Source of the DNA: a bacterium
Lineage (GTDB): Bacteria; Pseudomonadota; Alphaproteobacteria; Rhodobacterales; Rhodobacteraceae
Assembly: GCA_016124195.1 (NCBI GenBank)
Contig: WGOE01000008.1
Location: 40,682 to 104,681, forward strand
Length of the DNA: 64,000 nt
Direction: 5' to 3'
Position numbers and translations under genes: made by a program. Within the stretch, counting starts at the first letter, position 1. Each line of letters starts with the position of its first letter. The notes under the pieces were generated by a model. That model ran no database searches, was not told where the DNA came from, and saw only the letters and a list, made by a program, of their open reading frames with translations. Shown piece by piece: positions 12,100-39,211 of the stretch.

Positions 12100-13256
12100 G
12101 AATATCTCGTTGTACGGTCGCTCCCTGGCCGCCGCCCGATGCGCCGCCGCTCTGCATCGAAGCTAACCCGGCGGTCGGCCAAGGCAAGGGCGCTGGCAAA
12201 GGCGATCCGGGCGCGGTCGCTTCGTGACGCCTGCAGGCCGACCGCCTGGCCGACCGCAATCTCAAGCAGCGCAGCGCCCGGGACAGGGGAGTTGTCGCGC
12301 AGGTCGCTTGCCAGATCGGCGCGGATCGCTTCGCTGTCCGGCATCACGACCGCACTGGTCACCACGAGGAACCGCCCCTCGCCGGCATAGGCCATCAGGT
12401 GATGGCTTTTGGCAAAGACGCGGTCGATGGCCGCGGCCACCCGGGACAGCGTCGGCAGGAAGGTCGCGGGATCGGCGCGCTCGACCGTCGCGGGTGTGAC
12501 CGTGACGGCAAGCACATAGGCTCCGGCCAGATCCGCCCTCGACAGCCGGGCGACATAGCTGGACAGCGCAGCCGGGGCGATCAGCGAAGGCACCTCGCCC
12601 AAAGGCGCGGGCGGCACATTCAGGTCAAGGTCAGGCAGGCCATCGAACGTGCGCGAGACAAGCCGGGCCCGCGCGGTTTGCAGCCGAGTCGCGAAATCGA
12701 TGACGTCGAAAGGCTTGGTGGTGTAATCCGAGGCCCCGGCGCGGAAGGCGGCATTCAGGTATTCGATCTCTGTCATGCCGGTCAGCATGATGATCGGCAC
12801 ATCCGCATAGGCCGGCAGACGGCGGATCCGGGCGCACAGGTCGATCCCGTCGATTTCAGGCATGCGGATGTCCAGCAGGAGGCAGTCGAAGGGTCTCCGG
12901 GCGGCTTCGATCAAGGCCAGCGCCGCGCTGCCCGAAGCGGCCGTCGTGACCTCGGGAAAGCCGGCCGTCGCGGCGATCCGGGGCAGCAGTTCCAGGATGA
13001 AAGGGTCATCATCCACAGCCAGAATGCGCATCCCGTCCTGTCCGGGGGCATCATCGGTTGTGCCGCGCCGCGCCGGCTCTTGCCGTTCGGGCCGCAAGGC
13101 CGCGACCACGACCGTCGCAAGAAGGGCGAGGCTTCCGATCAAGGAATAGGCAAGAAGCCCCCACCACAAGGACCCGCCCTTGACCAGCACCACGACCAGT
13201 CCGATCAAACCGGCCAACAGTCCGACACATGCATAGGCGATTATCACGCAGCTCAC
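12096..13256 (-). CDS. membrane-anchored response regulator: 2 TM + REC + degenerate GGDEF-like domain
   Basis: GTG start at 13256 with GAGG upstream. The N-terminus VIIAYACVGLLAGLIGLVVVLV...LLAYSLIGSLALLATVVVAAL forms two hydrophobic helices. Then MRILAVDDDPFILE...LLDIRMPEIDG...TKPF (REC), followed by a paralogous C-terminal domain with AGEGRF in place of GGDEF. Confidence 0.8.
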   Translation of the reverse strand: MSCVIIAYACVGLLAGLIGLVVVLVKGGSLWWGLLAYSLIGSLALLATVVVAALRPERQEPARRGTTDDAPGQDGMRILAVDDDPFILELLPRIAATAGFPEVTTAASGSAALALIEAARRPFDCLLLDIRMPEIDGIDLCARIRRLPAYADVPIIMLTGMTEIEYLNAAFRAGASDYTTKPFDVIDFATRLQTARARLVSRTFDGLPDLDLNVPPAPLGEVPSLIAPAALSSYVARLSRADLAGAYVLAVTVTPATVERADPATFLPTLSRVAAAIDRVFAKSHHLMAYAGEGRFLVVTSAVVMPDSEAIRADLASDLRDNSPVPGAALLEIAVGQAVGLQASRSDRARIAFASALALADRRVSFDAERRRIGRRPGSDRTTRYS

Positions 13257-15496: not shown

Positions 15497-16423
15497 TTAC
15501 AGAAGCGCGCCGCCCGCGTAATACCAGTCGAGCGCCGCCGGATCGGTGCAGATCTGTCCGCCCCTTTCGCGCAGGTGACGCGAGATTTCCTCTGTCATGC
15601 CATCGGCCTCGGCCTCGCCGGCCTCGCCCTTGCGGATCATGGCGCCGGAGTTGAGGATCGGAACCGCGCCGACCGTCCTCGCCTCGAACTTCTCTTCGTG
15701 CCGCTTCATCCAGGGAAACGAGGTATATTCCAGAATGGCCGGCCACTGCTCTGCCGCGGGTTTGACCCCGAGGAACTCCGCGATCTTGCGGATCGAGGCT
15801 TCGTGGCGCGCCTTCATGTCGGAGTAATGCAGGAACAGCACATTCCCGGCGTGGCGCAGCGGCCACCAGGCAGCAAGAAAGCCAAAGAGCATGCCCTGCA
15901 TCCCGTGACCGTCGATCACATCCCTGTAGAACGAGGCGAAGTCTGGCCGGCACATCGCGGCGCGCGGCATCTGCCACAGGTCGAACCAGTCATCCGAGTG
16001 CTGGGCCAGAAAGGGGCGAAACGACACCAGCGCCTCTTCGGGATTGCGAAAGACGACGATGTATTTCACATCCGCCCCGGCGCCCGCCGGAATATAGGGC
16101 ACCTGCGGCGGGGCGGAATGGGTCTTGAAGGCCCGGCGCCGCGTGGCGGGCATCGCCTCCACCCGGTCCAGCACCTCTTGGTGCGGCTGGCCGGGGCGAC
16201 CCAGAAACTCGATCCAGGGGACCTCGGCATAGATATCGGCGAAATCGGCCGTCCCGCAGGACAGAAGCTGATGGACAATGTTCATGGTCCAGGTGGTGCC
16301 GCTCTTGGCGGGAACCGAGATCACGACATCCCCGTCACGCCATTTGATGCCCTGCTGGATCTGCGGCTGGATCCACGGCGGTCCGGCTGGCGGTGCTGCG
16401 GTGTCAGAGGCATCGCTACTCAC
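15497..16423 (-). CDS. sulfotransferase family protein (PAPS-dependent type)
   Basis: 5'-PSB loop VISVPAKSGTTWTMNIV and the downstream RNP..ALVS region. The start is uncertain: GTG 16423 is preceded by GGGGAGA, while the longest ORF starts at 16534 with an Arg-rich extension. Confidence 0.75.
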   Translation of the reverse strand: MSSDASDTAAPPAGPPWIQPQIQQGIKWRDGDVVISVPAKSGTTWTMNIVHQLLSCGTADFADIYAEVPWIEFLGRPGQPHQEVLDRVEAMPATRRRAFKTHSAPPQVPYIPAGAGADVKYIVVFRNPEEALVSFRPFLAQHSDDWFDLWQMPRAAMCRPDFASFYRDVIDGHGMQGMLFGFLAAWWPLRHAGNVLFLHYSDMKARHEASIRKIAEFLGVKPAAEQWPAILEYTSFPWMKRHEEKFEARTVGAVPILNSGAMIRKGEAGEAEADGMTEEISRHLRERGGQICTDPAALDWYYAGGALL

Positions 16424-16626
16424 GTCGTCAATCTCCCCGAGCCGGAAAGCCGCACGGTGCCCCGAAGGCCGCCATGCCGTCCGATCCCGTGCGACATACG
16501 ATGGGACTGCGCGCCGGCGGGCCAGACGAAACACCGTGTCAGGTTACGCGGCACGCCGGCCCGCTGGCAAGCCCTCCCGGGCAAGCCTGCGGCAAGGGCG
16601 CGATGCCCTTCAGCGCGGGACGGCGT

Positions 16627-17268
16627 TCAGCGCGCCGCCCAAAGCGCACCACGGCGAAAGATCGTGCGCATCTGCGGCACCTCGAATTCATGCGCCTTGT
16701 GACCGAGCGAGGAATAGAACACCCGCCCCTGACCATAGCGCCGCTTCCAGACCACCGGCATCACCACGCCCCGCGTCCATGCCGCGTGTTCGCCGCTGAA
16801 GGTCGTGGCGGCCAGCACGTCGTTCGAGGGATCGACGTGCATATAATATTGTTCCGAGGTATATGGAAAATCGCTGATCCCTTCCATCACCGGATCGTCG
16901 GGCCGGGTGATGTTGACCTCGTAGTCGATGACATTGCCCGGATGAGCGACCCATTGGCCACCGATGATGAACTGATAATCGACCGAATCGCGGAACGAAT
17001 CCCCTGCCCCGCCGTGATAGCCGGCGATGCCGACCCCGCCCTCAACCGCCGCGGCAAGGTTCCTGACCTCTTCCTTCTCGATCTTGGACATGGTCACGAT
17101 CGGCACGATCAGGTTCAGGTCCCGGATCGAGGGGTCCGCGAAGGCCTCGGTCGAGCGTTCGACATAGACCTTGAAATCCTCGGCCTCCAGCATGTCCTTT
17201 ATGATGGCCGCGCAGGCTTCGGGTTCGTGCCCGTCCCAGCCGCCCCAGACGATCAAAGCCTCACGCAT
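16627..17268 (-). CDS. ThuA domain-containing protein
   Basis: MREALIVWGGWDGHEP...GIAGYHGG...FIIGGQWVAHPG is typical of ThuA (class I glutamine-amidotransferase-like fold). AGGAGA lies 6 nt upstream of ATG 17268. Confidence 0.85.
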   Translation of the reverse strand: MREALIVWGGWDGHEPEACAAIIKDMLEAEDFKVYVERSTEAFADPSIRDLNLIVPIVTMSKIEKEEVRNLAAAVEGGVGIAGYHGGAGDSFRDSVDYQFIIGGQWVAHPGNVIDYEVNITRPDDPVMEGISDFPYTSEQYYMHVDPSNDVLAATTFSGEHAAWTRGVVMPVVWKRRYGQGRVFYSSLGHKAHEFEVPQMRTIFRRGALWAAR

Positions 17269-17282
17269 CGCAGTCTCCTGTG

Positions 17283-18383
17283 TCATCGGGCCAACTGGCC
17301 CCGGTCCACCGACTGGGCCAGCGGCGCCGGCCGGTCGGTCAAAGTGGTGATCGCCACGACGCGGCGCTGGTCCGAGGCGGTCTGGAAGGCCTCCATCACC
17401 TCAAGCACATGCAGCGCCAGGTCGCCAGAGGCGCGGTGCGGGCGATCCGAACGCAGGGCATGCGCCATGTCCGCCACGCCAAGCGAGCGGAAATTGCCAT
17501 CGGCATAGGGCAGATCGATGGGCCGCTCCTGCCAGGCGCCGCCGGTCCGCAAGACCTCGACCGGGCCGCCGAAGCGGTTGGGATCGGGGACCTGGATGGC
17601 GCCTTCGGTGCCGTAAAGCTCGATCGGGGGGTGCTTGTGGCCCGGCACGTCAAAGCTCATCGCGACCTGAACCAGCGCGCCCGTGGCAAAGCGCAGGGTG
17701 CCTGCGACATGGGTGGCCACATGCACCGGGATGGTCTGACCGCTGCGCGGTTGGCTGGTGATGGTGCGCGTGGCGCGCGGCATGGCGGCAAAGCCCGCGA
17801 CCTCGGCCACCGGGCCCAAAAGGTTCACCAGCGCCGTGATGTAATAGGGCCCCATGTCCAGCATCGGACCGCCGCCGGGTTCATAGTAGAAATCGGGATT
17901 GGGGTGCCAGCTCTCGTGCCCGGGGTTCATGAAATTGGCTGTCCCGCCGACCGGCGCGCCGATCTCGCCCGCATCCACGATGGCGCGCACGGTCTGCTGG
18001 CCGCCGCCCAGAAAGGTATCGGGCGCCGCCCCGATGCGCAGGCCCTTCGCTGCGGCCGCCCGGGCCAGCCGGCTGCCTTCGGCAAAGGTGATGCCCAAGG
18101 GCTTTTCCGAATAGGTGTGCTTGCCCGCCTCAAGCGCGCGCAGGCCAACCGCGACATGCGCCTTGGGCACCGTCAGGTTGACGATGATCTGCACGTTGGG
18201 ATCGGCGAAAAGCGCGTCCAGATCCTGCACCGGCACCGCGAATTCGGCCGCCCGCGCCCGGGCCAGATCCGCGTTCAGATCGGCCACGCCGCGGATGTCG
18301 AGGATGGGAAACCCCCGCATCGCCGTCAGATAAGCGCCCGAGATATTGCCGCAGCCGACGATCCCTATTCCGACCTTTTCCAT
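17283..18383 (-). CDS. Gfo/Idh/MocA family oxidoreductase
   Basis: N-terminal Rossmann motif VGIGIVGCGNISGAYL and the EKPL motif (HTYSEKPL). 366 aa. Confidence 0.9.
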   Translation of the reverse strand: MEKVGIGIVGCGNISGAYLTAMRGFPILDIRGVADLNADLARARAAEFAVPVQDLDALFADPNVQIIVNLTVPKAHVAVGLRALEAGKHTYSEKPLGITFAEGSRLARAAAAKGLRIGAAPDTFLGGGQQTVRAIVDAGEIGAPVGGTANFMNPGHESWHPNPDFYYEPGGGPMLDMGPYYITALVNLLGPVAEVAGFAAMPRATRTITSQPRSGQTIPVHVATHVAGTLRFATGALVQVAMSFDVPGHKHPPIELYGTEGAIQVPDPNRFGGPVEVLRTGGAWQERPIDLPYADGNFRSLGVADMAHALRSDRPHRASGDLALHVLEVMEAFQTASDQRRVVAITTLTDRPAPLAQSVDRGQLAR

Positions 18384-19585
18384 CCGCCCTCCCCTCGGCC
18401 GGGATCTCCGGCCGGCATTTCATAGATCTCATGCAGCGCCAGCGCGGCGGCCCCCTGCGCCCAGAACGCATCTTCGGCCATGTCGAACACCAGTTCGGTG
18501 ACGCCGGTCAGCGACGGCGGTACGGCCTTGGCATAGGCAGCGCTCAGGCGATCCAGAAAGACCCGGCCGAGCGCCAGGCTCGAGCCCACGACAATGACGC
18601 GGGGCGGCGCGAACAGCGTCACGACGTTGGCCAGTGTCAGCCCCACCGCATCGGCCGCGTGCAGGGCGGCACTTTGCAGGCGGTCGTCACGGTCCAGCCG
18701 GGTCTGCGTCTCGTTCATCCCGCGGCCCGGGCTGATCGCGTCGGCCAGACGTCCCTTGGTCGGCGGGCCCTTCAGGATCGCCGCCGCGCCGGCCAGATCG
18801 GACAGCCGGCGCATCCCGTCCGGGCCAAGGCCCAGAACCAGATCGCCCAGGTTGTGACTGAGCCCGCCGGCCCCGCGAAAGAGCCGCCCGCCGTTCAGAA
18901 CCCCAAGCCCCAGCGTGCGTTCCAGCGACACCACCACCACATCGTCCAGACCGCGCGCAAGGCCGAACCAGTGATGCGCCAGCGTGATGGCATGGGCGTC
19001 GCTTTCCACCAGCGTCGGAATCCCCAGCCGCACCGACATCGCCGCGGCAAAATCGAGGTTGGGCTCGTGGAAGATCGCCGAAGACCGGATGTTGCCGGTG
19101 CGGTATTCGATGACACAGGGCAAGGCGAGGCAAAGCTTGTGCACGTCGCCAAGCCCCAGACCGGCATCGGCGATACACTGGCGCACACCGTCCTCGATCA
19201 GATCCGCGATCACCCCGGCCGGCTGGCGGTCGATGCGGATCGGCAGGGCAAGCCTGGACAGAACCGCGCCGCAAAAGTCGGTCACGGCAAAGGTCATCCG
19301 GTCGGCAGCGATCTTTGCGCCGACCACGCGCAGCGCGTCGGGGTTGAGTTCCAGCATCACCCGGGGCCTGCCGCGCGCCGCCTCGGTGCGGATGTCGCCC
19401 AAGTGGCGCGGCAGGACCAGCCCGTCCTCGATCAGGGCCGCGGTGATCGCCGAAACCGTGGTGGTGGACAGTTCGGTGGCCTCGCTGATCTCGATTCGGG
19501 CGATCGGGCCCCGCCTGCGGATCGTATCCAGCACGCTCAACCGGTTGATGGCGCGCATCATTTCTGGGTCCGCGCTTTTCATCAT
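18365..19585 (-). CDS. ROK family transcriptional regulator
   Basis: 406 aa. N-terminal wHTH (INRLSVLDTIRRRGPIARIEISEATELSTTTVSAITAALIEDGLV) followed by a sugar-kinase-like ROK body. Overlaps the next gene by 19 nt. Confidence 0.85.
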   Translation of the reverse strand: MMKSADPEMMRAINRLSVLDTIRRRGPIARIEISEATELSTTTVSAITAALIEDGLVLPRHLGDIRTEAARGRPRVMLELNPDALRVVGAKIAADRMTFAVTDFCGAVLSRLALPIRIDRQPAGVIADLIEDGVRQCIADAGLGLGDVHKLCLALPCVIEYRTGNIRSSAIFHEPNLDFAAAMSVRLGIPTLVESDAHAITLAHHWFGLARGLDDVVVVSLERTLGLGVLNGGRLFRGAGGLSHNLGDLVLGLGPDGMRRLSDLAGAAAILKGPPTKGRLADAISPGRGMNETQTRLDRDDRLQSAALHAADAVGLTLANVVTLFAPPRVIVVGSSLALGRVFLDRLSAAYAKAVPPSLTGVTELVFDMAEDAFWAQGAAALALHEIYEMPAGDPGRGEGGWKRSE

Positions 19586-19934
19586 CCTGTGCTTTCAGGC
19601 TCCGGCACTGGGGGTTGTTTATTTCGCATCCCGAATTTATTCAACAAGATTTTAGGGCCAAACCCGGCGCCAGTACAACTGAAATGATGCCTGCACCACA
19701 GTTGCGGGCACAAATATAGACAGTTTGCACATCGAAACGCCGCGATCTTGCCGGGCCCTTGCCCGGCAGCAAGGCCGATGGCACCACCTTAAATCCGCTG
19801 ACGGGAATAATTATTCTGGCAGAAAGCCATGGAGATGAGCCCCGTCTTTGGCGGCAAGAGACGGGGTGTCGATGGTGCATGCCGGGCACGGTCGACCAGG
19901 CGCGCCGCCCCGAAGCCGCGGCCGGAATGGCGGT

Positions 19935-20789
19935 CTAGGCTTGGTCAGCGCCCCCGGGCGCATCGCCGCGCCGGGCGATCAGCGCTGCGATGCGCGCGGC
20001 GCAGTCGGGCGTGGCCGGGTTGAAGACCATCATGGCAAGATCCGGCCGCCCCTCGACCGCGAAGGTCGAAACCTCCAGTTCGATCAGGCCGATCTCGGGG
20101 TGGCGCAGCCGTTTGGTCCCCTCGGCGTGGCCGACCACCTCATTGTCGCGCCAGAGCGCCGCGAACTCGGGGCTCGTGCGCGACAGATCCTCGACCAGTT
20201 GCGCGATTTCGGCCGAGGCGCCGGCGCGCGTGGCATCGGCCCGAAAGGCGCCGACGGCAAAGCGGGCGACGTTTTGCCAATCCTCATTGGCGCGGCGCAC
20301 GCCGGGATGCGAAAACATCAGGCGCAGGATATTGCGTTGCCGGGGCGGCAGCGCGCCATAGTCGGTCAAGAGGACCGCGGCCGCCCGGTTCCACGCCACC
20401 ACATCCCATGTCGCCGTCTTGATCAGCGCCGGGCTGTGCGGCATCGCGTCCAGCACATGCTGCAGGCGCGGCGTGGTGCCGTCTTGCGGTGCATAGCGCG
20501 CCTCGGGGCGATGCCCGAAGGCCAGCAGGAACAGATGCTCCCGTTCAGGTTCGGTCAGCATCAGGCCCGAGGCGATGCGGTTCAGGACATCGGCCGAGGG
20601 CGCACCGCCCCGGCCCTGCTCCAGCCAGGTGTACCAGGTGGGGCTGATGTTGGCACGCTGCGCCACCTCTTCCCGGCGCAGGCCCGGCGTGCGCCGCCGC
20701 CCTGCCTTGAAGCCGAACGTCGCAGGGTCCAGCCGGATGCGCCGATCGCGCAGAAAGCTGCCCAAAGTGCTGGCGGGTTCGCTGGCCAT
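19935..20789 (-). CDS. MmyB-like XRE-family transcriptional regulator
   Basis: LGSFLRDRRIRL...TPGLRREEVAQRANISPTWYTWLEQGRG is the characteristic MmyB-type HTH, followed by a PAS-like ligand domain. Divergent from an NAD-dependent reductase, the usual pairing. Confidence 0.85.
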   Translation of the reverse strand: MASEPASTLGSFLRDRRIRLDPATFGFKAGRRRTPGLRREEVAQRANISPTWYTWLEQGRGGAPSADVLNRIASGLMLTEPEREHLFLLAFGHRPEARYAPQDGTTPRLQHVLDAMPHSPALIKTATWDVVAWNRAAAVLLTDYGALPPRQRNILRLMFSHPGVRRANEDWQNVARFAVGAFRADATRAGASAEIAQLVEDLSRTSPEFAALWRDNEVVGHAEGTKRLRHPEIGLIELEVSTFAVEGRPDLAMMVFNPATPDCAARIAALIARRGDAPGGADQA

Positions 20790-20898
20790 GGGGATCCTGT
20801 TAGCTTTTATACCATGATAAAGTCACTACTTTACCGGAAAGAACTTTAGCTTCAGATGGCCCCGCAGACAATATCGCAGACACTATGGAGGTGCTTTC

Positions 20899-21801
20899 AT
20901 GCTGGTCTTTCTGACGGGTGCGACGGGGTTCATCGGGTCCCGCATCGTGCCGGAATTGCTGGCCGCAGGTCATCAGGTGCTGGGCATGGCCCGGTCTGAC
21001 AGGGGGGCCGCGGCACTCGCCGCCGCCGGGGTGCGCGTTCACCGCGGCACGCTGGAGGATCCTCAGTCCCTGCGCGCCGGGGCCGAACAGGCCGATGCGG
21101 TGATCCACACCGCTTTTGACCACGATTTCACCAATTTCGCAGCGAATTGCGCCAAGGACAGCCGGGCCATCGCGGCGCTTGGTTCGGCGCTGCGCGGCTC
21201 GGACCGGCCGCTGATCATCACCTCGGGCACCGGAATGGGCGATCCCGAAAATGGCCAGCCCGCCATCGAGGCGGTCTTCAACCTCAACCATCCCAACCCG
21301 CGCTCGGCCTCGGAAGTGGCCGGTCAGGCGTTGCTGGAGGCCGGGGTGAACCTGCGGGTGATGCGCTTGCCACAGGTGCATGACCGGGTGCGGCAGGGCC
21401 TGATTTCGCCCTATGTCGAGATTTCGCGCGAAAAGGGGGTGGCGGCCTATATCGGCGAAGGGCTGAACCGCTATCCGGCGGCGCATGTGGCTGATGTGGC
21501 GCGGCTGTACCGGCTAGTCCTGGACCACGGCCAGAAGGGCGCGCGCTATCATGCCGTGGCCGAAGAGGGCCTGACGGTGCGCGCCATCGCCGAAGTGGTG
21601 GGGGCGGGTCTGGGCGTGCCGGTCGCCTCGGTATCCGCCGAGGCCGCGCCGGCGCATTTCGGCTGGTTCGCCATGTTTGCCGGGCTTGACCTGCCCGCCT
21701 CGGGCGCCTGGACGCAGGCGAGCCTTGGCTGGCATCCGGCGGGGCCCGGCCTGATCGAGGATCTGGGCCAGATGGACTATTCCCGGCCCGCGGCGTCCTG
21801 A
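20899..21801 (+). CDS. NAD-dependent epimerase/dehydratase (atypical SDR, NmrA-like)
   Basis: MLVFLTGATGFIGSRIVPELLAAGHQV Rossmann motif. 300 aa. Confidence 0.85.
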   Translation: MLVFLTGATGFIGSRIVPELLAAGHQVLGMARSDRGAAALAAAGVRVHRGTLEDPQSLRAGAEQADAVIHTAFDHDFTNFAANCAKDSRAIAALGSALRGSDRPLIITSGTGMGDPENGQPAIEAVFNLNHPNPRSASEVAGQALLEAGVNLRVMRLPQVHDRVRQGLISPYVEISREKGVAAYIGEGLNRYPAAHVADVARLYRLVLDHGQKGARYHAVAEEGLTVRAIAEVVGAGLGVPVASVSAEAAPAHFGWFAMFAGLDLPASGAWTQASLGWHPAGPGLIEDLGQMDYSRPAAS

Positions 21802-21870: not shown

Positions 21871-21971
21871 CGCAAGGACGACCCGTCACGCCTGTTGCGA
21901 TTCCGCCGGCCCGGGCCGCATGATCACTGGATTAGCCAGCGACATGGCGGCCCGGCCAGGAAAGTCACCCG

Positions 21972-24701
21972 ATGGAAAGCGCACTGGAAGGCAGTCTGGC
22001 GGGCTATATCTGGCGCCACACCCGGCGTCAGCAGATCTGGGTGCTCTGCATCGTCCTTCTGTCGATGGTCCCCTATTTCCTGGCGCTTGACCTGCCCAAG
22101 CGGATCGTCAACGGCCCGCTGCAGGGCCACGGCTTTGACACGCCAGAGGCGACGCAGACCTTCCTGCACCTGAGCCTGTCGCTGCCCTTCCTGGGCACGG
22201 TCGAGGTGTTTCCCGGCATCAGCCTTGGCCGCACGCCCATGCTGTTCGCGCTGAGCTTCGTGTTCCTTGCGCTCGTCGTGATCAACGGGCTCTTCAAGTA
22301 TTACATCAACACCTACAAGGGCCGGCTGGGCGAACGCCTGCTGCGGCGCATCCGTTTCGACCTCGTGGACCGGGTGCTGCGCTTTCCCCCTGCGACCTTC
22401 AAACGGATCAAGCCGGCCGAGATCGCCAGCATGGTCAAGGACGAGGTCGAACCGCTGGGCGGCTTCACCGGCGACAGCTTTGTCTCGCCGCTGCTGCTGG
22501 GCGGGCAGGCGCTGACCGCCCTTGGCTTCATCTTTCTGCAAAGCGTGCTGATCGGCAGCATCACGGCGGCTCTGGTGCTGGTGCAGGCCACGCTGATCCC
22601 GCGGCTGCGCAAGAGGCTGTTGATCCTGGGCCGTCAACGGCAGTTGACCGCGCGCGAATTTGCCGGGCGCGTCGGCGAAATCGTCGAAGGGGTGGGCACG
22701 ATCCACGCCTATGACACATCGAACCTGGAACGCGCCGACATCGGACGGCGGCTCGGGATCATCTTCCGCATCCGATACGAGCTTTACCAGTGGAAATTCA
22801 TGGTGAAGTTCATCAACAGCTTTCTGGCGCAGGTGACGCCTTTTCTGTTCTACAGCCTCGGCGGCTATCTGACGCTGCGCGGGCAACTGGATCTTGGCCA
22901 GTTGGTCGCGGTGATCGGCGCCTACAAGGATCTGCCGGGCCCGATGAAGGATCTGATCGACTGGGATCAGGCCCGTCAGGATGTCGAAGTCAAATTTGCG
23001 CAAGTCGTGGGCGCCTTCACGGTCAACCCGATGATCCGGCCCGAAGTGCAAGCCGTCTCGACCGCAGCGCATCCGGCCCGGTTGCCGCCCCTGGCCATGA
23101 CGAACCTGACGCTGGCCGACGACAGCGGATCGGTGCTGCTGCATCCGGTCAACCTTCGGCTCAACCCGGCCGAAAGCGTGGCGCTGGTGGGCAAGACGGC
23201 GGGCGGGGGCGAGGCTTTCGCCGAGGCTCTGGGCCGCCAGATCTGGCCATCCGCGGGCCGCATTTCGGTGGGCGAGGACAACCTTCTGGACCTGCCCGAG
23301 GCCATATCGGGCCGGGCCATCACCTATGTGGCGCCAGAACCCTTCTTTCTGTTCGGCACCATCGGGGACAACCTGCTTTACGGGCTCAAACACGCGCCGA
23401 TCGGGGCCAACAGGTCCGCCCCCGCCGATCAGGTCACCCGCCATTGGGAGCGGATCGAGGCCGAACGCGCCGGCACCCCCGATCTGGACCTGGACTGCGA
23501 CTGGACCGACTATGCCTCGGCCGGGGTCGCAGGCCCGCAAGACCTGATGGCCCGGGTGATCGAGGTGATCGAGACGGCCGAACTGACCGAAGACCTGCTG
23601 ACCATCGCGCTGCGCAACCGTTACGATCTGTCCGCTGAGGGCGATCTGACCCGGCGCGTCGTGCAGATGCGCGGGACGCTGGTTGCGACGCTGGAACAGG
23701 CCGGGCTCAGCGGGCTGATCATCCCCTTCGACCCCGAGGCCTATAACGAGGCGGCGACGGTGGGTGAAAACCTGCTGTTCGGACACGCCGTCGACGACAG
23801 GCCTCCAGGCGGCACAGTGCGCGACACCGCCTATTTCCGCGCGCTGATCGCGGAGACCGGCCTGCAAACCGCGCTTTTCGACATGGGACGCGAGATTGCC
23901 GCCAACACCGTCGACCTTTTCGGCGACCTGCCGCCGGATCACCCTTTCTTTCAACGGCTGACCTTCATGGCCGCCGAGGACATTCCGCGCTACGACCGCA
24001 TCCTGCAGCGGCTGCAGGGGCGTAGCGCGGATCAGGCGACCGACGAAGACCGCTCGGACCTGATCGCTCTCAGCTTTCACTATGTCGAGCCGCTGCACCG
24101 CTTCGGCCTGCTGACAGAGCCCCTGAGGACGCGGATCACAGCCTTCCGCCGCCGCTTTCGCGAAGGCCTGCCGGCCGAGATTGCCGCCGAGATCGAATTC
24201 TACGACCCGGCCCGTTACATGACCACGGCGAACCTGCAGGCCAACCTGCTGTTCGGCCGCATCGACCCGCGCGAGGCCACCTCGCACGAACGGATCTACG
24301 AGGTCTTGCGCGATCTCTTGCACCGCGAAGGGCTGCATGACCGCATCCTTGCGATCGGGCTGGGCTATCACATCGGCACGGGTGGCAAGCGGCTGACCAC
24401 GGTGCAGCGCCAGAAGCTGGGACTGGCGCGCGCCCTGATGCGCCGTTCGTCCTATTTCGTGTTCAACCGCCCGCTTTCAGCACTTGATCAGCGGCACGAG
24501 GCGCAAATCGTGCAGAGAGTCATGGACCGGCTGCAGCGCGAGACCCCGCGGCCCGGGATCCTCTGGGTCCTGTCCAATGCCGCGCAGGCCGGCCTTTTTG
24601 ACCGCGTGATCCTGTTCGAACGCGGCACCCCGGTCGAGGACGGCCCGCCGGCCACGGTCGCCGACAAGAGCCCCCTGTTCAAGGAATTGATGTCGGCCTG
24701 A
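21972..24701 (+). CDS. ABC-exporter-like protein with degenerate, expanded nucleotide-binding domain
   Basis: 909 aa. The N-terminal ~330 aa look like a type-I exporter TMD. The NBD-like part has Walker A replaced by VGKTAGGGEAF, the signature by GGKRLTTVQRQKLGLARAL, and Walker B by YFVFNRPLSALD. See findings. Confidence 0.8.
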   Translation: MESALEGSLAGYIWRHTRRQQIWVLCIVLLSMVPYFLALDLPKRIVNGPLQGHGFDTPEATQTFLHLSLSLPFLGTVEVFPGISLGRTPMLFALSFVFLALVVINGLFKYYINTYKGRLGERLLRRIRFDLVDRVLRFPPATFKRIKPAEIASMVKDEVEPLGGFTGDSFVSPLLLGGQALTALGFIFLQSVLIGSITAALVLVQATLIPRLRKRLLILGRQRQLTAREFAGRVGEIVEGVGTIHAYDTSNLERADIGRRLGIIFRIRYELYQWKFMVKFINSFLAQVTPFLFYSLGGYLTLRGQLDLGQLVAVIGAYKDLPGPMKDLIDWDQARQDVEVKFAQVVGAFTVNPMIRPEVQAVSTAAHPARLPPLAMTNLTLADDSGSVLLHPVNLRLNPAESVALVGKTAGGGEAFAEALGRQIWPSAGRISVGEDNLLDLPEAISGRAITYVAPEPFFLFGTIGDNLLYGLKHAPIGANRSAPADQVTRHWERIEAERAGTPDLDLDCDWTDYASAGVAGPQDLMARVIEVIETAELTEDLLTIALRNRYDLSAEGDLTRRVVQMRGTLVATLEQAGLSGLIIPFDPEAYNEAATVGENLLFGHAVDDRPPGGTVRDTAYFRALIAETGLQTALFDMGREIAANTVDLFGDLPPDHPFFQRLTFMAAEDIPRYDRILQRLQGRSADQATDEDRSDLIALSFHYVEPLHRFGLLTEPLRTRITAFRRRFREGLPAEIAAEIEFYDPARYMTTANLQANLLFGRIDPREATSHERIYEVLRDLLHREGLHDRILAIGLGYHIGTGGKRLTTVQRQKLGLARALMRRSSYFVFNRPLSALDQRHEAQIVQRVMDRLQRETPRPGILWVLSNAAQAGLFDRVILFERGTPVEDGPPATVADKSPLFKELMSA

Positions 24702-25205: not shown

Positions 25206-26063
25206 TTAGCCCAGCAGCACCCAGTCCGCCTCTTGCAGGGCATATCCGGCGAACAGGAAATCGCGGATCGCGGTGATGCGTTGGGCCTGCCACGACAGGA
25301 TCACGAAATGCGCGGGCCGGTCGGCGGAACTGGTCCGGTCGAAGACCAGCATGGCCGGCCGCCCCTCGACCGCGCCAAAGGCAAAGCGCCACTTCGGTTC
25401 GGAGGCGTAGCGCGTGAAATAGACGCCGACCCGGTCGCGCCCTGCCAATTGCAGCCGGTTGACCAGATCCAGCCGGACCTCCTCGGCCAGAAGCGCGCGG
25501 ATCGCGTCGAAGTCGCCGGACTGGAACAGCCTGACATAGGTGGTCATCTGCTGGCGGGCCGCCTCGGTCAGCAGGGGCAGCCGGGCATCACCCGGCGCTT
25601 CGGCCAGACGCCGCAAGGCCAGCCGCCCGCGCTGCAACGCCGATTTGGCACTGGCCGGCGACAGATCCGCGATGCCGGCGATCTCTTCGATCGAATAGCC
25701 CAGAACATCCTTGAGGATCACGGCGCAGCGCTGCACTTCGGGCAGTTGCAGGAAGGTGCGAAAGCTGACCGAGACGATGTCGGGGTCGGGCACCGTATCG
25801 GCCTCGATCTGGTCGATCAGCGGCACGTCGCGCTGGCGGGCGCCCTGCCGCAGAAAATCGAGGCAGGTGTTATGCGCGATGCGAAACAGCCAGGCCTGCA
25901 GGTTTTCGACCTCGACCCCCGCGTCGCGGGCGCGCAGGGCCTTTATCAGGCTGTCTTGCAGCACATCCTCGCCGTCGATCGCAGAGCCGGTCATGCGCGC
26001 GCAATAGCGGTGCAGGCGCGGCCGCAGATCGGCAAGCCGCTGTTCGAAATCCTTCGGAGTCAT
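25206..26063 (-). CDS. ECF sigma factor with C-terminal NTF2/SnoaL-like extension (ECF41/SigJ-like)
   Basis: 285 aa. Sigma region 2 (DVLQDSLIKAL...WLFRIAHNTCLDFLRQ) and region 4 (VLGYSIEEIAGIADLSPASAKSALQRGR), plus a ~110-aa C-terminal extension. No adjacent anti-sigma gene. Confidence 0.85.
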   Translation of the reverse strand: MTPKDFEQRLADLRPRLHRYCARMTGSAIDGEDVLQDSLIKALRARDAGVEVENLQAWLFRIAHNTCLDFLRQGARQRDVPLIDQIEADTVPDPDIVSVSFRTFLQLPEVQRCAVILKDVLGYSIEEIAGIADLSPASAKSALQRGRLALRRLAEAPGDARLPLLTEAARQQMTTYVRLFQSGDFDAIRALLAEEVRLDLVNRLQLAGRDRVGVYFTRYASEPKWRFAFGAVEGRPAMLVFDRTSSADRPAHFVILSWQAQRITAIRDFLFAGYALQEADWVLLG

Positions 26064-26117: not shown

Positions 26118-26438
26118 TCAGCCACCTTGGCCAGCCCTCGCGTCACGGCGATGCACCTCGGCCCCGGTCACGGAGGCGAAGCTTGCCAGCGCAAGCAGCT
26201 TGGGGAAATAGGCCTTCATGCGCGGGTCCTCCCGCATCTGCCCGACCGCCTCGGCGCTTTGCCATTCCGACAGGATGATGATGCTGGCCTCGCCGGCGAC
26301 GATCAGCCGGGTCGAAATCCAGCCCGGCAGGGTGCTGATCACCGTGTCGATATTGGTTTTCAAAAGTGCGATCAGCGCCGATTGGTTCGCGGGCGCGACG
26401 CTCAGCGTGTTGATCAGAAGAACGGAAGTTTCGGTCAT
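26118..26438 (-). CDS. antibiotic-biosynthesis-monooxygenase (ABM/Dabb) domain protein
   Basis: 106 aa from ATG 26438 (GAAGGAA upstream). The pattern LINTLSV...IILSEWQSAEAVGQMREDP fits the ferredoxin-like ABM fold. Sits upstream of the sigma gene on the same strand. Confidence 0.65.
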   Translation of the reverse strand: MTETSVLLINTLSVAPANQSALIALLKTNIDTVISTLPGWISTRLIVAGEASIIILSEWQSAEAVGQMREDPRMKAYFPKLLALASFASVTGAEVHRRDARAGQGG

Positions 26439-26607
26439 CGGCCTGTTCCTTCGGGTTGCGACCTTTCTATGACGAAAGGGCGCGGCCAAACGGATCGGGG
26501 CGGCGGAAAAACTGTCGGGCCGGCACAGTATCCGCTTGCCGACCGGGCACATGCCGTTAAGTCATGCGCGGAGCCGGCCCTGTCGGCCGTGGCAAAGGAG
26601 ACGGCGC

Positions 26608-28731: not shown

Positions 28732-28884
28732 CGCGGGCAAGGGCAGATCCCGCGCGCGCCCGGGCCCGATCAGCACAACCCATAGTGGAAGAGCACTATC
28801 CCGTTGCGGGAGGTCGGGCATAGCCTTAAGGGTGGAGCGCAAATCAGCCCCGCGGCACGACGGAACAAGCGTCAGGAGATCGCC

Positions 28885-31305
<2,421 letters not shown>

Positions 31306-31916: not shown

Positions 31917-34808
31917 GTGCGGTCTGAAATCGTGAAAGGCTCGGACGAGGCCGGTGTTGCGGCCAGTGCAGAAGCCGGTACCGCTGCAATGGCGTTTGCG
32001 GTCTCGGCGCTGACGACGCTGGCCTGTGCCGCCGATGCCGAGCTTGTGCCGGCGGTGGCGGCGGCCCATGCCCAGATCGCGGCCTTCTTCGGGGCGCGGC
32101 GTGTCGCCCTGTACCGCAGCGCCCCGCGCCAGGCGCCCGCGTTGTTTCAGCATTGGACAGCCGTTTCAGCCCGGGACGAACCCTTTGAGCCGCTGGATGC
32201 GGCACAGATCCGGCAACTGTTCAGCGCGTCGCAGGACCGGTTTCACCCGATTGCCACGACCGGAGGCGACCCGGGGCCGCAAGGGCTCAGCATGGGAACA
32301 GAGCAGGACGGCGGCCTCCTTGTGGTCTGGCGCCCGCGAGACGCCGCCCCGGCGGAGGGTCTTGGCGGAACGGCCATTGCCGGTCTGGCGCAGGCCCTGC
32401 TTTCCGCGATGCGGCGCATCGAGCGGAACCCGCCCCCAGGCGCCGCGGCCGAAGCGGAGCCGCCCGCTGTCCAGCACCAGCCCGAGGCCGCCCCCAAACG
32501 CCTGAGCCAGGCCTTGGAATGGATCGAAAACGGCGTGGTCTTTTATGACTCGCAAGACCGTTTCATGCTGTGCAACCAAAGCTTCCGCGACATCTATCCG
32601 CTGTCGACCTCGGCCCTGATCCCCGGCACGCCTTTTGTCGATATCTTGCGGCTGGCCATCGCAAACGGTCAATTCTTTACCGCGCCAACCGACGCAGAGG
32701 CCTGGATCGCCAACCGTCTGGCCAATCGCCGCACGGGCGGCCGCGGTTTTGAACGGACGCTGCCTGACGGGCGCGTGCTGCATGTGATGGAACATCTGCT
32801 GCCCGGCGGCGAATGGATCGAGGTGCATTCCGACATCACCGAACTCAAACTGGCCCGGCAAAGGCTGCGCAACCTGATCGACGGCGGCCAGATCTGCGCC
32901 TGGGATTGGAACATCGCGACCGGAGAGCATTGGGTCAACGCCTACTGGGCCCGGCTGCTTGGCTATGACTTGCATGAACTGCTGCCGATCACCTTCGAAA
33001 CCTGGCGGTCGCGCGTGCATCCCGACGATCTGGCCGCGACCGAGGCCCTGTTCGACCGCGCCCTGCAGGACGACGACGTGAACTTCCGCGCCGAATATCG
33101 GCTGCGCCACCGCGACGGCCACTGGATCTGGGTGCTCGACAGCGGCCGCACCCTGCGCCGCGGGCCGAACGGCGAGCCCGAACAGGTCGCCGGCGTGCAG
33201 ATCGAGATCACCGAACAAAAGGCACGCGAGGCGGCGCTGGCGGCGGTGAAGGCGGACCTCGAACGTTCCATCACCGAAAGGGCGCGGGTGGAACAGCGGC
33301 TGTACGACATCGCCGCCGTCTCGGATGGCTGGCTCTGGGAGACCGACAGCAACTGCCGTTTCACCCTGGTCCTGGACGGCGAGTTCTTTGACGATGGCGG
33401 CGTGCCCAAGGAGGGGATGCTGGGCAAGACCCAGGAGGAATGGCTGGCGATGAACCCGGACATGCTGCCGGGGATAAATTGGGAACCGCTGCTGGCGGCG
33501 TTGCGCGCACACAAGCCGTTTCGTGATTTCATCTACCGGGCGCCCCGGTCGGTCGACGGCATCGTGCGCTGGCGGCGCATGACGGGCAAGCCGATCTTCG
33601 ACGAGGCGGGCGGGTTCATCGGCTATCGCGGCGTGGGGTCGGATGTGACCGAACTCTACCTCGCCAAGGCACGGGCCGAAGAGGCCAGCCGCACCAAATC
33701 CAAGTTCCTCGCCAACATGAGCCACGAAATCCGCACGCCCTTGAACGGTGTCCTTGGCATGGCCGAGGTGCTGGACGGCGCACTGGACCATCCCGACCAC
33801 AAGCGGATGATCGGCACGATCCGCCGCTCGGGCGAGGCCTTGCTGAACATTCTCAACGATATCCTCGACATGTCGAAGATAGAGGCCGGCAAGATGGAAC
33901 TGGAGGCGGTGAGCTTCAGCCCGATCGAGCTGGCCGAACGGGTCGAAGACCTGCACGCCTTGCGTGCCGAGGAAAAGGGCCTGGCCTTTGACATCATGAT
34001 CGGCTCCGGCGCCGAGGTCGCGCGGATCGGTGACCCCTACCGTGTGCAACAGGTGCTGCACAATCTGATCAGCAATGCCATCAAGTTCACCGACCGGGGC
34101 GCCGTGCGGGCCAAGTTCAGCGGGCGACCCGGCAAGCCTCTGGTGATCGAGGTGCGTGACACCGGCATCGGGATGACTCAGGAACAGATCCTGCGGCTGC
34201 ATGACGAATTCAGCCAGGCCGACAGTTCGGTGACCCGGCGCTTTGGCGGCACCGGGCTTGGCATGGCGATCACGCGGTCGCTGGTCGAAAAGATGGGCGG
34301 TACGATCGAGGTGGAATCGGTGCCGGGCGAAGGGACCACGGTCCGGGTCTCGCTGCCGCTGCCGACCAGCGGGCCGAAGGTCGAGGTGGCAAAGCAGGTG
34401 CCGCGCGGCGCCTCCGGGCTTGAAGGTCTGCGCCTGCTGGCGGCCGACGACAATCTGACCAACTGCGCGGTGCTGGAAATCATGCTGCGCCGGCTTGGCG
34501 CGCATGTCACCATCGTGCACGACGGCGCGCAGGCGGTCGAAAGCTGGGCCCCGCGCCGGTTCGATGCCATCCTGCTTGACATCGCCATGCCGGTGATGGA
34601 CGGGCCGACCGCCCTCAGCGCCATTCGCGCGCTTGAGGCCAAGCACGGCGCCCCGCGCGTGCCGATCCTGGCCGTCACCGCCAATGTGATGGCGCATCAG
34701 GTCATGGAATATATCTCCTGGGGGTTCGACAGCTGCATCGGCAAGCCGATCAGTTCGGCCGAACTCTCCGCGGTGATCGCGGCGCTGTTCGCCCCCGACC
34801 GGACCTGA
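31917..34808 (+). CDS. PAS-domain hybrid sensor histidine kinase/response regulator
   Basis: 963 aa (GTG start; the exact start is uncertain). H-box FLANMSHEIRTPLNGVLGMAEVL is nearly identical to that of the upstream kinase. G-box GGTGLGMAITRSLV and a C-terminal REC (LLAADDNLTN...LLDIAMPVMDG...GKPI). Confidence 0.85.
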   Translation: MRSEIVKGSDEAGVAASAEAGTAAMAFAVSALTTLACAADAELVPAVAAAHAQIAAFFGARRVALYRSAPRQAPALFQHWTAVSARDEPFEPLDAAQIRQLFSASQDRFHPIATTGGDPGPQGLSMGTEQDGGLLVVWRPRDAAPAEGLGGTAIAGLAQALLSAMRRIERNPPPGAAAEAEPPAVQHQPEAAPKRLSQALEWIENGVVFYDSQDRFMLCNQSFRDIYPLSTSALIPGTPFVDILRLAIANGQFFTAPTDAEAWIANRLANRRTGGRGFERTLPDGRVLHVMEHLLPGGEWIEVHSDITELKLARQRLRNLIDGGQICAWDWNIATGEHWVNAYWARLLGYDLHELLPITFETWRSRVHPDDLAATEALFDRALQDDDVNFRAEYRLRHRDGHWIWVLDSGRTLRRGPNGEPEQVAGVQIEITEQKAREAALAAVKADLERSITERARVEQRLYDIAAVSDGWLWETDSNCRFTLVLDGEFFDDGGVPKEGMLGKTQEEWLAMNPDMLPGINWEPLLAALRAHKPFRDFIYRAPRSVDGIVRWRRMTGKPIFDEAGGFIGYRGVGSDVTELYLAKARAEEASRTKSKFLANMSHEIRTPLNGVLGMAEVLDGALDHPDHKRMIGTIRRSGEALLNILNDILDMSKIEAGKMELEAVSFSPIELAERVEDLHALRAEEKGLAFDIMIGSGAEVARIGDPYRVQQVLHNLISNAIKFTDRGAVRAKFSGRPGKPLVIEVRDTGIGMTQEQILRLHDEFSQADSSVTRRFGGTGLGMAITRSLVEKMGGTIEVESVPGEGTTVRVSLPLPTSGPKVEVAKQVPRGASGLEGLRLLAADDNLTNCAVLEIMLRRLGAHVTIVHDGAQAVESWAPRRFDAILLDIAMPVMDGPTALSAIRALEAKHGAPRVPILAVTANVMAHQVMEYISWGFDSCIGKPISSAELSAVIAALFAPDRT

Positions 34809-37320: not shown

Positions 37321-38076
37321 TCAGGCGCGCAGATCCGTCAGTGCCGGGCGTGACGGGCCGGCCAGCAGAACCATGATCACCTGCCGGGTAAACTCCCAAG
37401 TCGCGCTGTCGTGGGCAAGGTGATGGGTCAGCAGGCCCAGGGGTTCGCGATTGTCGGTCAGGCCAAGGCGGCGATCGGCCATGAGTTGCGCCAGCTGCCG
37501 CACCAGATCGGCCGGATCGACAAGGCCGCGCCCGCCCCGCCAGTCGATCGGGTCAAGGTGGGTGTTGATCTGCGCAAGCCCGGGCGCGGCTGTGGCGGCG
37601 CGGCGCGGACCAAAGGTCGAAACCGCAGCAAAGCCCAGGGGGGCAAGACCAGCCACGACCTCAGGCGCAATCCGGTTCCACGGCGGTACGAACATGGCCT
37701 GCAGCCGGGCACCGAACAGTTTCTGCAGCTGGGCGAGGCCCTGACGCGCCTCGTCCAGCGCAGCGCCGGGCGGGCGGGTGGCGCCGAATTCGGCCTTCTT
37801 CGCCTCGGCCGGGGCGTGGTTCTGATGCACCCAGCCGTGAACGACCGGGATCAGGCAGCCCGCCCCGGCAACGCGCACGGCCAGTTCGGCGGTGGCACGC
37901 CGCGGGATCACGGCCAGATGCACCGGCAGCCCCACCGCGTCCGACAAGGCGATCAGCTGGTCCAGCGCGGCGGTGGGGGCAATGGCATCATCGTCGCGCC
38001 ACCAGAGGGGCAGGTCCAGCCCGGCGGCCCGCCACAGCCTCTGTTCCTGCACAACCGGGGTCCAATCGATCTTCAT
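37321..38076 (-). CDS. polysaccharide deacetylase-like protein (DUF2334-like)
   Basis: 251 aa. WWRDDD...HLAVIP...HGWVHQNH...FVPPWNR matches the Asp/His metal-site pattern of deacetylase-fold proteins. ATGA overlap with the upstream GT gene. Confidence 0.65.
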   Translation of the reverse strand: MKIDWTPVVQEQRLWRAAGLDLPLWWRDDDAIAPTAALDQLIALSDAVGLPVHLAVIPRRATAELAVRVAGAGCLIPVVHGWVHQNHAPAEAKKAEFGATRPPGAALDEARQGLAQLQKLFGARLQAMFVPPWNRIAPEVVAGLAPLGFAAVSTFGPRRAATAAPGLAQINTHLDPIDWRGGRGLVDPADLVRQLAQLMADRRLGLTDNREPLGLLTHHLAHDSATWEFTRQVIMVLLAGPSRPALTDLRA

Positions 38077-39206: not shown

Positions 39207-39211
39207 AACCT

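Follow-up and report, generated by a model that had tools for sequence, protein, structure and literature searches.

The 64,000-nt stretch analysed here (positions 40,682 to 104,681 of the forward strand of contig WGOE01000008.1, assembly GCA_016124195.1, from a member of the Rhodobacteraceae; "the window" in the following) encodes an intact protein of 909 amino acids (aa) that is homologous to ATP-binding cassette (ABC) exporters. AGGAAA, a plausible ribosome-binding site, lies 9 nt 5' of its ATG. The gene for a small cyclic-nucleotide-binding protein starts 30 nt 3' of this ABC-like gene on the same strand, and 13 kb away from the pair a minus-strand operon (37321-50819) carries genes for glycosyltransferases, a nucleotide-sugar dehydrogenase and a binding-protein-dependent importer (Table 1). 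A preliminary description of the open reading frame (ORF), made from the letters alone, had proposed an exporter-type membrane part, a catalytically dead nucleotide-binding domain (NBD) with a triplicated module, and a role in sensing or regulation rather than in pumping. We followed up these proposals by comparison with profiles, structures and related loci.

The remodelled nucleotide-binding domain

The transmembrane domain (TMD) is the six-helix ABC_membrane domain of a type IV exporter. Residues 94-315 match PF00664 with E 5.2e-16 (59.6 bits, cut-off 28 bits), and in an AF2 model built from 37 family sequences the six long helices are accompanied by a small beta-rich periplasmic loop at residues 51-86. 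The model has a mean pLDDT of 79.5, with values of 80-94 across most of the cytoplasmic part. Its top Foldseek matches are TmrAB and other type IV exporters (MsbA, P-gp), at E ~1e-14 and a TM-score of ~0.55 on the target; by sequence, TmrA is found with E 3e-19 and NdvA (7znu) with E 1e-14. The exporter-type TMD of the preliminary description is thus borne out by the Pfam match, the structure prediction and the structural comparison alike.

The NBD is more divergent. ABC_tran (PF00005) matches residues 390-480 with positions 1-80 of its 137 and reaches 22.4 bits, below the gathering score of 25 bits; despite this, both NBD halves are clearly homologous to exporters according to NCBIfam and PDB alignments. 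NCBIfam models and solved structures (TmrAB, MsbA, CydD, CydC, Sav1866, P-gp and NdvA) align in two blocks, ~88-476 and ~740-908, the exporter models of NCBIfam covering residues 736-908, and the ~270-300 residues between the two blocks are without a match in exporter models or structures.

The register of the NBD motifs was set by the alignment to TmrA together with family alignments. Read in this way, the tyrosine position of the A-loop is Met376, the glutamine position of the Q-loop is proline (Pro or Ser in the family), the signature LSGGQ has become LTTVQ, the D-E pair of Walker B is N832-R833, and the H-loop histidine is Ser868. In Walker A, GxxGxGK[ST] corresponds to G407-K-T-A-G-G-G413-E414, with glycine in place of Lys and glutamate in place of Ser/Thr. 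The motif that is retained is the D-loop, SALD. That all ATPase motifs are degenerate, as had been proposed by eye, therefore holds in register with TmrA and with 121 orthologues, including the N-R replacement in Walker B, and no intact catalytic residues emerged from these alignments. For Walker A the proposal needs a correction: the in-register Lys and Ser/Thr are gone, but the string was said to lack GK[ST] and literally contains G-K-T at residues 407-409, five to six residues off register. The Lys of this off-register triplet occurs in 6 of the 121 orthologues. On these grounds we predict that the protein does not hydrolyse ATP.

The replacing residues are themselves conserved. Across the 121 orthologues, the Lys position of Walker A holds G or A in 117 sequences and Lys in none, the Ser/Thr position is acidic (E or D) throughout, the Walker B Asp position is N in 120, the catalytic Glu position is always R or K, and the H-loop position is S, A or T in 117 and never His; the signature reads L-T-x-V-Q, with the GG pair in none. 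A set of 63 diverse full-length members likewise lacks the GG pair throughout (0/63) and mostly has Asn for the Walker B Asp. The Walker A Lys is found in 20 of these diverse members and K-[ST] in 6; canonical Walker A and B motifs occur together in a single one, the Thalassospira protein P0213. The catalytic Glu is present in 11 of the 20 proteins that keep the Lys versus 3 of the 43 others (Fisher p 6e-5, uncorrected for phylogeny). The ancestor of the family was thus likely able to bind nucleotide but already impaired (N-E, no GG), with full loss of the site occurring later in several lineages, including the one considered here. We also considered a compensating salt bridge between the acidic residue that replaces Ser/Thr in Walker A and the basic one that replaces the catalytic Glu; their covariation is not significant among the 63 diverse members (Fisher p 0.6), and the E/D plus R/K pairing is a clade-level observation only.

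The two NBD halves are separated by an insert of ~290 aa that is made up of repeat units. From the first Q-loop-like module, M1, to the signature we measured 337-358 residues, in agreement with the ~330 residues estimated before, and the three 22-residue modules M1, M2 and M3 that had been spotted by eye could be confirmed at their exact positions. Each belongs to a longer unit (U1 to U3) that consists of a beta-strand, the motif T-x-x-(E/D)-N-L-L-(F/Y)-G and then two helices. The AF2 model shows this pattern thrice (E450/H464/H522/H539, E583/H597/H620/H631 and E741/H755/H771/H789). In U2 the module is followed by the conserved motifs DLPPDHPFFQ.LTFM and EP.HRFGLL, and U3 is the copy that runs on into the signature helix.

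Support for the repeats from the single sequence alone is modest: the ungapped BLOSUM62 scores of M1-M2 (42) and M2-M3 (43) were matched by 6 and 5 of 200 shuffles, respectively, and the similarity between M1 and M3 (28) is not significant. At the level of profiles the repeats are significant. Hidden Markov models (HMMs) of M2 and M3 match each other in 61-63 of the 63 diverse members, with a median domain i-E of ~1e-8 over ~60 positions. With large, diverse alignments, and with U3 represented by residues 737-860, hhalign relates U2 to U3 with a probability of 98.0% (E 1.6e-13, 118 aligned columns), U1 to U3 with 95.9% (E 5.2e-9, 89 columns) and U1 to U2 with 92.5% (E 5e-7, 93 columns), whereas nine controls, in which U1-U3 were compared with segments elsewhere in the protein, gave E values of 0.2-0.45. 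These values supersede an earlier run with close homologues only, in which U1 was weak (probability 23-53%). The triplication of the helical-subdomain region suggested by the preliminary description is therefore upheld on profiles. Since M1 and M3 both match positions 407-436 of the CydC model, the repeated unit would correspond to the canonical Q-loop strand and the start of the helical subdomain. U2 searched alone had no match in Pfam, NCBIfam or the PDB, and its apparent link to ABC NBDs is only transitive, via U3. An insert-only profile found nothing but noise among PDB sequences (EF-Ts, E 0.34), and for an insert-only AF2 model (pLDDT 73) a Foldseek search of the PDB returned nothing below E 1.2; the insert is without a detectable solved relative.

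Neither Pfam nor NCBIfam holds a specific model for this family or for its insert, and the database names of its members are all generic. Searches with the whole protein retrieved hundreds of ~905-aa proteins with 54-81% identity, with Rhizobium, Agrobacterium, Sinorhizobium, Mesorhizobium, Phyllobacterium, Hoeflea, Cypionkella and Gemmobacter among the genera of close relatives. At least 581 GTDB species genomes contain a relative, as do 262 records of plasmids or chromids, S. meliloti pSymB and R. leguminosarum pRL11 among them, and a search with the insert alone gave 738 clusters at 50% identity. The family is thus widespread in plant-associated and marine alphaproteobacteria. The information content per column peaks in the TMD, the three modules and the signature helix, and the P-loop is among the lowest regions of the NBD. 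The TMD is the most conserved region, with 3.76 bits per column among close and 2.46 among diverse members, and contains an invariant periplasmic motif, PK.IVNGP.QG.GF (residues 42-55). Given the at least 581 genomes with a relative, the 738 clusters with the insert and the conservation of TMD, modules and signature helix, motif loss and triplication are family-wide selected traits and no sign of decay. Comparison of related loci also revealed recurrent gene partners, which are described below. Full-text searches of the literature returned no description of the family, its dead NBD, the triplicated unit or the partnership with a cyclic-nucleotide-binding protein; it is a large and so far undescribed family of mainly alphaproteobacterial type IV ABC half-transporter homologues.

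Two observations on the coding sequence itself may be added. An antisense ORF of 815 aa (21924-24371, minus strand) overlaps the ABC-like gene, and a similar ORF occurs in 23 related loci; this is typical of the "shadow" ORFs of high-G+C coding DNA and no evidence of a gene. The orthologue of S. meliloti 1021 (pSymB, NC_003078.1, ~15724-18433 of locus L093) is frameshifted near codon 135, from frame 1 to frame 2, and that of S. meliloti 2011 (L091, 12001-14709) is intact. The frameshift may be a genuine lesion of strain 1021 or else stem from an error in early sequencing, which is of relevance to those who use strain 1021 for work on this locus.

Cyclic-nucleotide-binding partner and glycosyltransferase gene set

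The protein encoded immediately downstream of the ABC-like gene is a single cyclic-nucleotide (cNMP)-binding domain with an intact phosphate-binding cassette, whose G-E...R-T-A pattern is invariant in 84 orthologues. According to a tblastn comparison, the cNMP gene adjoins the ABC-like gene in 84 of 84 loci. In P0161, P0179, P0187, P0213, P0215 and P0264, proteins of ~1030-1085 aa, the ABC-like part carries a cNMP domain as a C-terminal fusion; the same holds for P0203 (1156 aa), in which the fused domain is followed by a weak GGDEF match (E 4e-4). Gene fusion and invariant adjacency together provide strong evidence that the ABC-like and cNMP proteins act together. The surroundings of fused members vary: one has a second, stand-alone cNMP gene downstream (locus L088, 3690-4127), the Thalassospira member with canonical Walker A and B has an MBL/anti-Pycsar Apyc1-like gene upstream (L090, 5192-5971), and in locus L085 the fused gene is followed by an overlapping class III cyclase gene (11171-12451), with response regulators on the flanks. 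On S. meliloti pSymB and R. leguminosarum pRL11 an adenylate/guanylate cyclase gene stands at the start of the cluster and the cNMP gene at its end. The 64-kb window itself yielded no cyclase homologue. Alphaproteobacteria encode dozens of cyclases, and few cyclic-nucleotide receptors are known from them; an obligatory cNMP partner of an exporter-type protein would represent a new type of cyclic-nucleotide effector in this class.

The cNMP protein of the window also has a weak match to TIGR03896. A PDB entry of 131 aa named "cyclic nucleotide-binding protein" (5d1i_A) aligns to its residues 1-123 with E 1.4e-18, including the N-terminal L(K/R)LLAF motif, and could be the partner's orthologue in a different alphaproteobacterium and serve as a template. 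The consensus of the Clr/CRP box, HGTYHCNNNNGRWACW (PMC5498481), has no match in the window. A defence system of the Pycsar/CBASS type was considered and rejected: PADLOC did not recognise the ABC-like protein, and all that it matched in the partner was the generic cNMP domain found in Pycsar effectors. The conserved location on chromids and the symbiosis phenotype described below favour a housekeeping or host-interaction role over defence.

The second recurrent association is with glycosyltransferase (GT) genes. In most related loci three of them immediately precede the ABC-like gene, arranged as GT28_C-like, GT4, GT28_C-like, with the importer genes beside them and the second GT4 gene and a conserved 251-aa ORF nearby. 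GTs of the RedA/RedB type were found in 67-72 of 87 loci, and in 57-61 of 87 importer homologues lie no more than 10 kb from the ABC-like gene; linkage to the GTs is not universal among the distant fused members. In the window the whole set is present, though at a distance of 13 kb. The 251-aa protein had no match in Pfam, NCBIfam or PADLOC, and we found no description of redA or redB in the full-text literature. The ORF starts of the importer genes are given as listed and are probably over-extended.

For the rhizobial orthologues tblastn gives 54-58% identity to the ABC-like protein of the window. The orthologue in R. leguminosarum 3841, pRL110047 (~904 aa), was placed via a 95.2%-identical R. 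leguminosarum copy without direct alignment to the window. The cNMP gene follows downstream, the red GT genes, the opt importer genes, cyaA and a UDP-GlcNAc dehydrogenase gene lie alongside, and the genes of this pRL11 cluster map one-to-one to the old locus tags pRL110043 to pRL110056. Insertion sequencing (INSeq) calls and gene names for strain 3841 were taken from the data sheet of Wheatley et al. (bioRxiv 10.1101/2020.05.07.082560). There, pRL110047 has a neutral call in the input libraries and calls of ES or DE in nodule bacteria and bacteroids, where it is needed. The partner gene pRL110046, annotated as "FNR/CRP regulator", is neutral in input and on the root, DE in the rhizosphere and ES in nodule bacteria and bacteroids; pRL110049 (redB) is neutral in input and ES in both nodule bacteria and bacteroids, and pRL110056, a putative UDP-GlcNAc 6-dehydrogenase, is neutral in input and DE, then ES, in nodules. 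The same paper lists pRL110047 and pRL110056 as "nodule-general" genes, and pRL110056 has also been reported to be important in root colonisation (PMC11103875). The shared nodule phenotype argues that the ABC-like gene, its partner, redB and the dehydrogenase gene serve one pathway. Opposite fitness effects were observed within the same cluster: mutants in pRL110053 (optA) and pRL110054 (optD) are advantaged (AD) in rhizosphere and root, pRL110051 (optC) is neutral, and mutants in the ABC-like gene, the cNMP gene, redB and the dehydrogenase gene are defective in nodules (bioRxiv 10.1101/2020.05.07.082560).

Table 1. Features of the ABC-like gene, its partner and the glycosyltransferase/importer operon (window coordinates unless a locus is named)
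Feature	Coordinates (nt)	Strand	Basis and remarks
ABC-like gene, 909 aa	21972-24701	+	ORF; Pfam, NCBIfam and PDB alignments; AF2/Foldseek; orthologue of R. leguminosarum 3841 pRL110047
Transmembrane domain, ~residues 1-350	21972-23021	+	PF00664; AF2 secondary structure
N-terminal NBD part, residues 372-449	23085-23318	+	PF00005 positions 1-80
Degenerate Walker A, VGKTAGGGEAF	23187-23219	+	Motif columns in register
Repeat unit U1, residues 446-582	23307-23717	+	Aligns to canonical Q-loop region of TmrA, MsbA, CydC
Module M1, ITYVAPEPFFLFGTIGDNLLYG, residues 450-471	23319-23384	+	Within U1
Repeat unit U2, residues 579-740	23706-24191	+	M2/M3 HMM cross-matches; hhalign vs U3
Module M2, IIPFDPEAYNEAATVGENLLFG, residues 583-604	23718-23783	+	Within U2
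Repeat unit U3 and C-terminal NBD half, residues 737-909	24180-24698	+	NCBIfam models; motif columns
Module M3, IEFYDPARYMTTANLQANLLFG, residues 741-762	24192-24257	+	Within U3
Signature position, LTTVQ, residues 808-812	24393-24407	+	In register
Walker B position, FVFNRPLSALD	24456-24488	+	In register; includes D-loop
H-loop position, WVLSNA	24564-24581	+	In register
Stand-alone cNMP-binding protein, 154 aa	24732-25196	+	PF00027, E 1.4e-20; orthologue of pRL110046
Conserved 251-aa protein (orf251), last gene of GT operon	37321-38076	-	With second GT4 in 40/87 loci
Second GT28_C-like glycosyltransferase, RedAh-type	38073-39230	-	67/87 loci
Second GT4 glycosyltransferase	39805-40893	-	41/87 loci
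GT4 glycosyltransferase, RedB-type, EpsE-like	40890-42140	-	69/87 loci; 3841 orthologue pRL110049
GT28_C-like glycosyltransferase, RedA-type	42137-43306	-	tblastn 44-53% identity to GT directly upstream of ABC-like gene elsewhere; 72/87 loci; redA in 3841
TviB-like nucleotide-sugar (UDP-GlcNAc C6) dehydrogenase	43384-44661	-	Pfam UDPG_MGDP_dh; NCBIfam TviB 483 bits, below 592-bit cut-off; counterpart pRL110056
Opt/Yej-type binding-protein-dependent ABC importer	44878-50819	-	Pfam; optABCD in 3841
Importer permeases	44878 to ~46030; 46026-47057	-	Pfam
SBP_bac_5 protein of importer	47054 to ~48960	-	Pfam
Fused double ATPase of importer, YejF-like	49044-50819	-	495 bits
optA in 3841 (locus L094)	6036-7943
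optD in 3841 (locus L094)	4147-6036

Possible modes of action

The reading that we favour, and to which we give about an even chance of being right, is that of a non-hydrolysing exporter-fold protein which, controlled by a cyclic nucleotide, acts as a regulated conduit serving a glycoconjugate pathway. The ABC-like protein would form a homodimer in the inner membrane, as suggested by the absence of a partner exporter gene from the window and from 94 related loci. Both the P-loop side and the signature side are dead, so that no dimer would possess a consensus site, and the ATP sites would be unused in this clade. The cNMP-loaded partner would dock on the expanded helical region of the pseudo-NBD. 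In canonical exporters it is the helical region that contacts the coupling helices. Docking would set the conformation of the TMD, which in turn would gate release or flipping of the product of the Red glycosyltransferases, or signal its state; the energy for transport would come not from ATP hydrolysis at the ABC-like protein but from another source, for instance a concentration gradient, polymerisation or the proton-motive force. The defining feature of ABC exporters is NBD dimerisation that is driven by ATP. Such a system would ask how an exporter fold works without ATP and would be a natural one in which to test it. It would also point to cNMP control of a glycoconjugate, surface-bound or secreted, in the symbiosis with legumes, for which genetic tools are at hand in R. 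leguminosarum 3841 and S. meliloti 2011.

Our view is at variance with the preliminary description on one point. The non-hydrolysing, regulatory part of its proposal is backed by the cNMP partner at 84 of 84 loci, the C-terminal fusions and the class III cyclases. Its statement that the protein is not a pump is not established, because the most conserved part is the TMD, the genes are linked to those for GTs and the dehydrogenase, and the nodule defect is common to the ABC-like gene, redB and the dehydrogenase gene. This pattern suits a regulated glycoconjugate conduit at least as well as a pure sensor.

Several observations speak against a conduit of this kind. The AF2 models are monomeric and silent on a docking site for the partner. 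In the window, the GT operon is separated from the ABC/cNMP pair by 13 kb that include histidine kinases and an MscS-like channel gene. Fused members exist without GT genes nearby, and for this reason the core function may be signalling, not export. About a third of the diverse members retain the Lys of Walker A, which goes significantly with retention of the catalytic Glu, so nucleotide binding may be ancestral and still in use in some lineages. Neutral INSeq calls were obtained for pRL110048 (redAh), pRL110050 (redA) and pRL110055 (cyaA) in strain 3841 (bioRxiv 10.1101/2020.05.07.082560). The two GT28-like paralogues may be redundant with each other, and cyaA is one of many cyclases.

Among the alternatives, we regard a pure signal transducer or regulatory subunit without any transport as possible, if on the unlikely side. 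The protein would then be a membrane-anchored sensor or scaffold that either relays a cNMP signal to the GTs, the Opt importer or other targets or picks up a membrane or periplasmic signal on their behalf. SUR, which serves Kir6, and FtsEX, which serves amidase activators, are analogues of such a regulatory scaffold. The loss of every energy-coupling motif fits this idea, as do the fused ABC-cNMP members that stand beside cyclases and response regulators in the absence of GT genes and the extra weak GGDEF domain of one member, and the invariant PK.IVNGP.QG.GF motif in the periplasm could be a site for a ligand or partner. On the other hand, the strongest conservation is seen in the membrane helices, and not in the loops alone, as one would expect of a specific translocation path; the operon linkage to GTs is tight in most loci, and the INSeq profile resembles those of a GT and a sugar dehydrogenase, as would fit a shared step in a pathway. 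All three of these, TMD conservation, GT linkage and the shared INSeq profile, are compatible with a regulatory role too.

Rather doubtful, in our view, is a stronger version of the conduit model, in which the cyclic nucleotide read by the partner has replaced ATP as the ligand that opens or closes the NBD-like domains. The protein would then be a second-messenger-gated conduit or flippase for a glycoconjugate of relevance to symbiosis, with the triplicated units as docking platform that passes the signal on to the coupling helices. If true, it would be the first ABC exporter fold run entirely without nucleotide triphosphate.

We consider it improbable that the protein is still an ATP-driven exporter, be it through a nucleotide site of non-canonical type or, in the manner of TmrAB or TM287/288 with their one degenerate site, as one half of a heterodimer whose canonical other half is encoded elsewhere. 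In favour of this idea, the NBD has kept its general fold and the D-loop, some distant members have GK[ST] and N-E or D-E, and heterodimeric exporters are known to tolerate one degenerate site. The combination found here, with a dead Walker A, Walker B and H-loop together with a dead signature, would impair both composite sites of any dimer, the A-loop aromatic residue and the Q-loop Gln are gone too, and the P-loop residues are not under selection for phosphate-binding geometry. A second exporter-type gene or TMD was found neither in the 64-kb window nor within 6-14 kb in the 94 related loci, and we rejected on this basis a heterodimer partner encoded there that would supply a consensus site.

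A decaying, non-functional exporter relic with chance repeats is effectively refuted: the sub-threshold PF00005 score, the non-significant M1-M3 similarity in the single sequence and the frameshifted copy of S. meliloti 1021 are outweighed by an intact ORF with full-length orthologues at 54-81% identity across orders and hundreds of invariant positions, by replacement residues (E/D, N, R/K) fixed in 120-121 of 121 sequences, by repeat units that are significant at profile level with clean controls, and by the fitness phenotype of mutants and the intact copy of S. meliloti 2011.

How does the ABC-like family compare with known systems? The best matches in sequence and structure are TmrAB, TM287/288 and BmrCD, which likewise have six transmembrane helices and a C-terminal NBD and show natural degeneration of catalytic residues. 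In these heterodimers, however, only one composite site is degenerate, it still binds ATP, the partner provides a consensus site, and there is no insert; the ABC-like protein has lost A-loop, Walker A, Q-loop, signature, Walker B and H-loop in a presumed homodimer, and ~290 residues, equivalent to two extra repeat units, are inserted between Q-loop region and signature. A combination of exporter-fold ABC protein and cNMP-type domain is also seen in exporters of the HetC/NHLM type (TIGR03797; TIGR03896 proteins). HetC carries its cNMP domain at the N-terminus; this domain is required in vivo and binds ppGpp in vitro, and HetC cannot do without the catalytic residue of its ATPase (PMC10986499). 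Here, in contrast, the cNMP domain is encoded by a separate downstream gene or fused C-terminally, and the ATPase motifs are gone. The score of the ABC-like protein against TIGR03797, 79.8 bits with a cut-off of 709, places it outside the HetC type.

In CFTR and SUR (ABCC7 and ABCC8/9) the exporter fold has been turned into a gated channel or a regulatory subunit that is controlled by second messengers. These eukaryotic proteins bind ATP at both sites and hydrolyse it at one, and they are regulated by phosphorylation of the R domain by protein kinase A or by Mg-nucleotides; unlike the ABC-like family, they have neither a dedicated cNMP-binding protein nor a triplication of the Q-loop unit. SbmA/BacA, with an ABC-exporter-like TMD that is driven by the proton gradient and no ATPase, demonstrates that the fold can transport without ATP. 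It has no NBD at all, whereas the ABC-like family keeps a remodelled, strongly conserved pseudo-NBD. BacA is mentioned in PMC10128002. NdvA/ChvA (cyclic-glucan exporter), MsbA and PglK are among the significant sequence matches and are likewise associated with glycans or glycolipids, but they possess canonical ATPase motifs, no insert and no cNMP partner. The orthologue pRL110047 itself is known only by its generic annotation and its high-throughput phenotype, and its locus differs from the window, where the GT/importer operon lies at a distance. The triplicated unit is absent from TmrAB/TM287/288, HetC/NHLM, CFTR/SUR and SbmA/BacA, and what is new here is an exporter fold with a dead, internally triplicated NBD that is tied to a cyclic-nucleotide receptor.

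Neighbouring genes

Upstream of the ABC-like gene the window encodes a sulfotransferase (15497-16534), a ThuA-like protein (16627-17286), a GFO/IDH/MocA oxidoreductase (17283-18383), a ROK-family regulator (18365-19585) and an MmyB-like regulator (19935-20789), all on the minus strand, and, directly upstream on the plus strand, an NAD-dependent epimerase with a weakly HpnA-like N-terminus (20899-21801). At other loci, none of these genes (15497-21801) is conserved beside the ABC-like gene. The stretch from the ABC/cNMP pair to the GT operon holds genes for an ECF sigma factor with a SnoaL-like C-terminal domain (25206-26063) and an ABM monooxygenase-like protein (26118-26552), both on the minus strand, followed on the plus strand by two PAS hybrid histidine kinases (28804-31305 and 31917-34808) and a large MscS-family channel protein (34926-37313). 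The G+C content over the GT genes (38001-42000) is 0.71-0.72; most of the window has values of 0.62-0.69, and 58-60 kb has 0.59.

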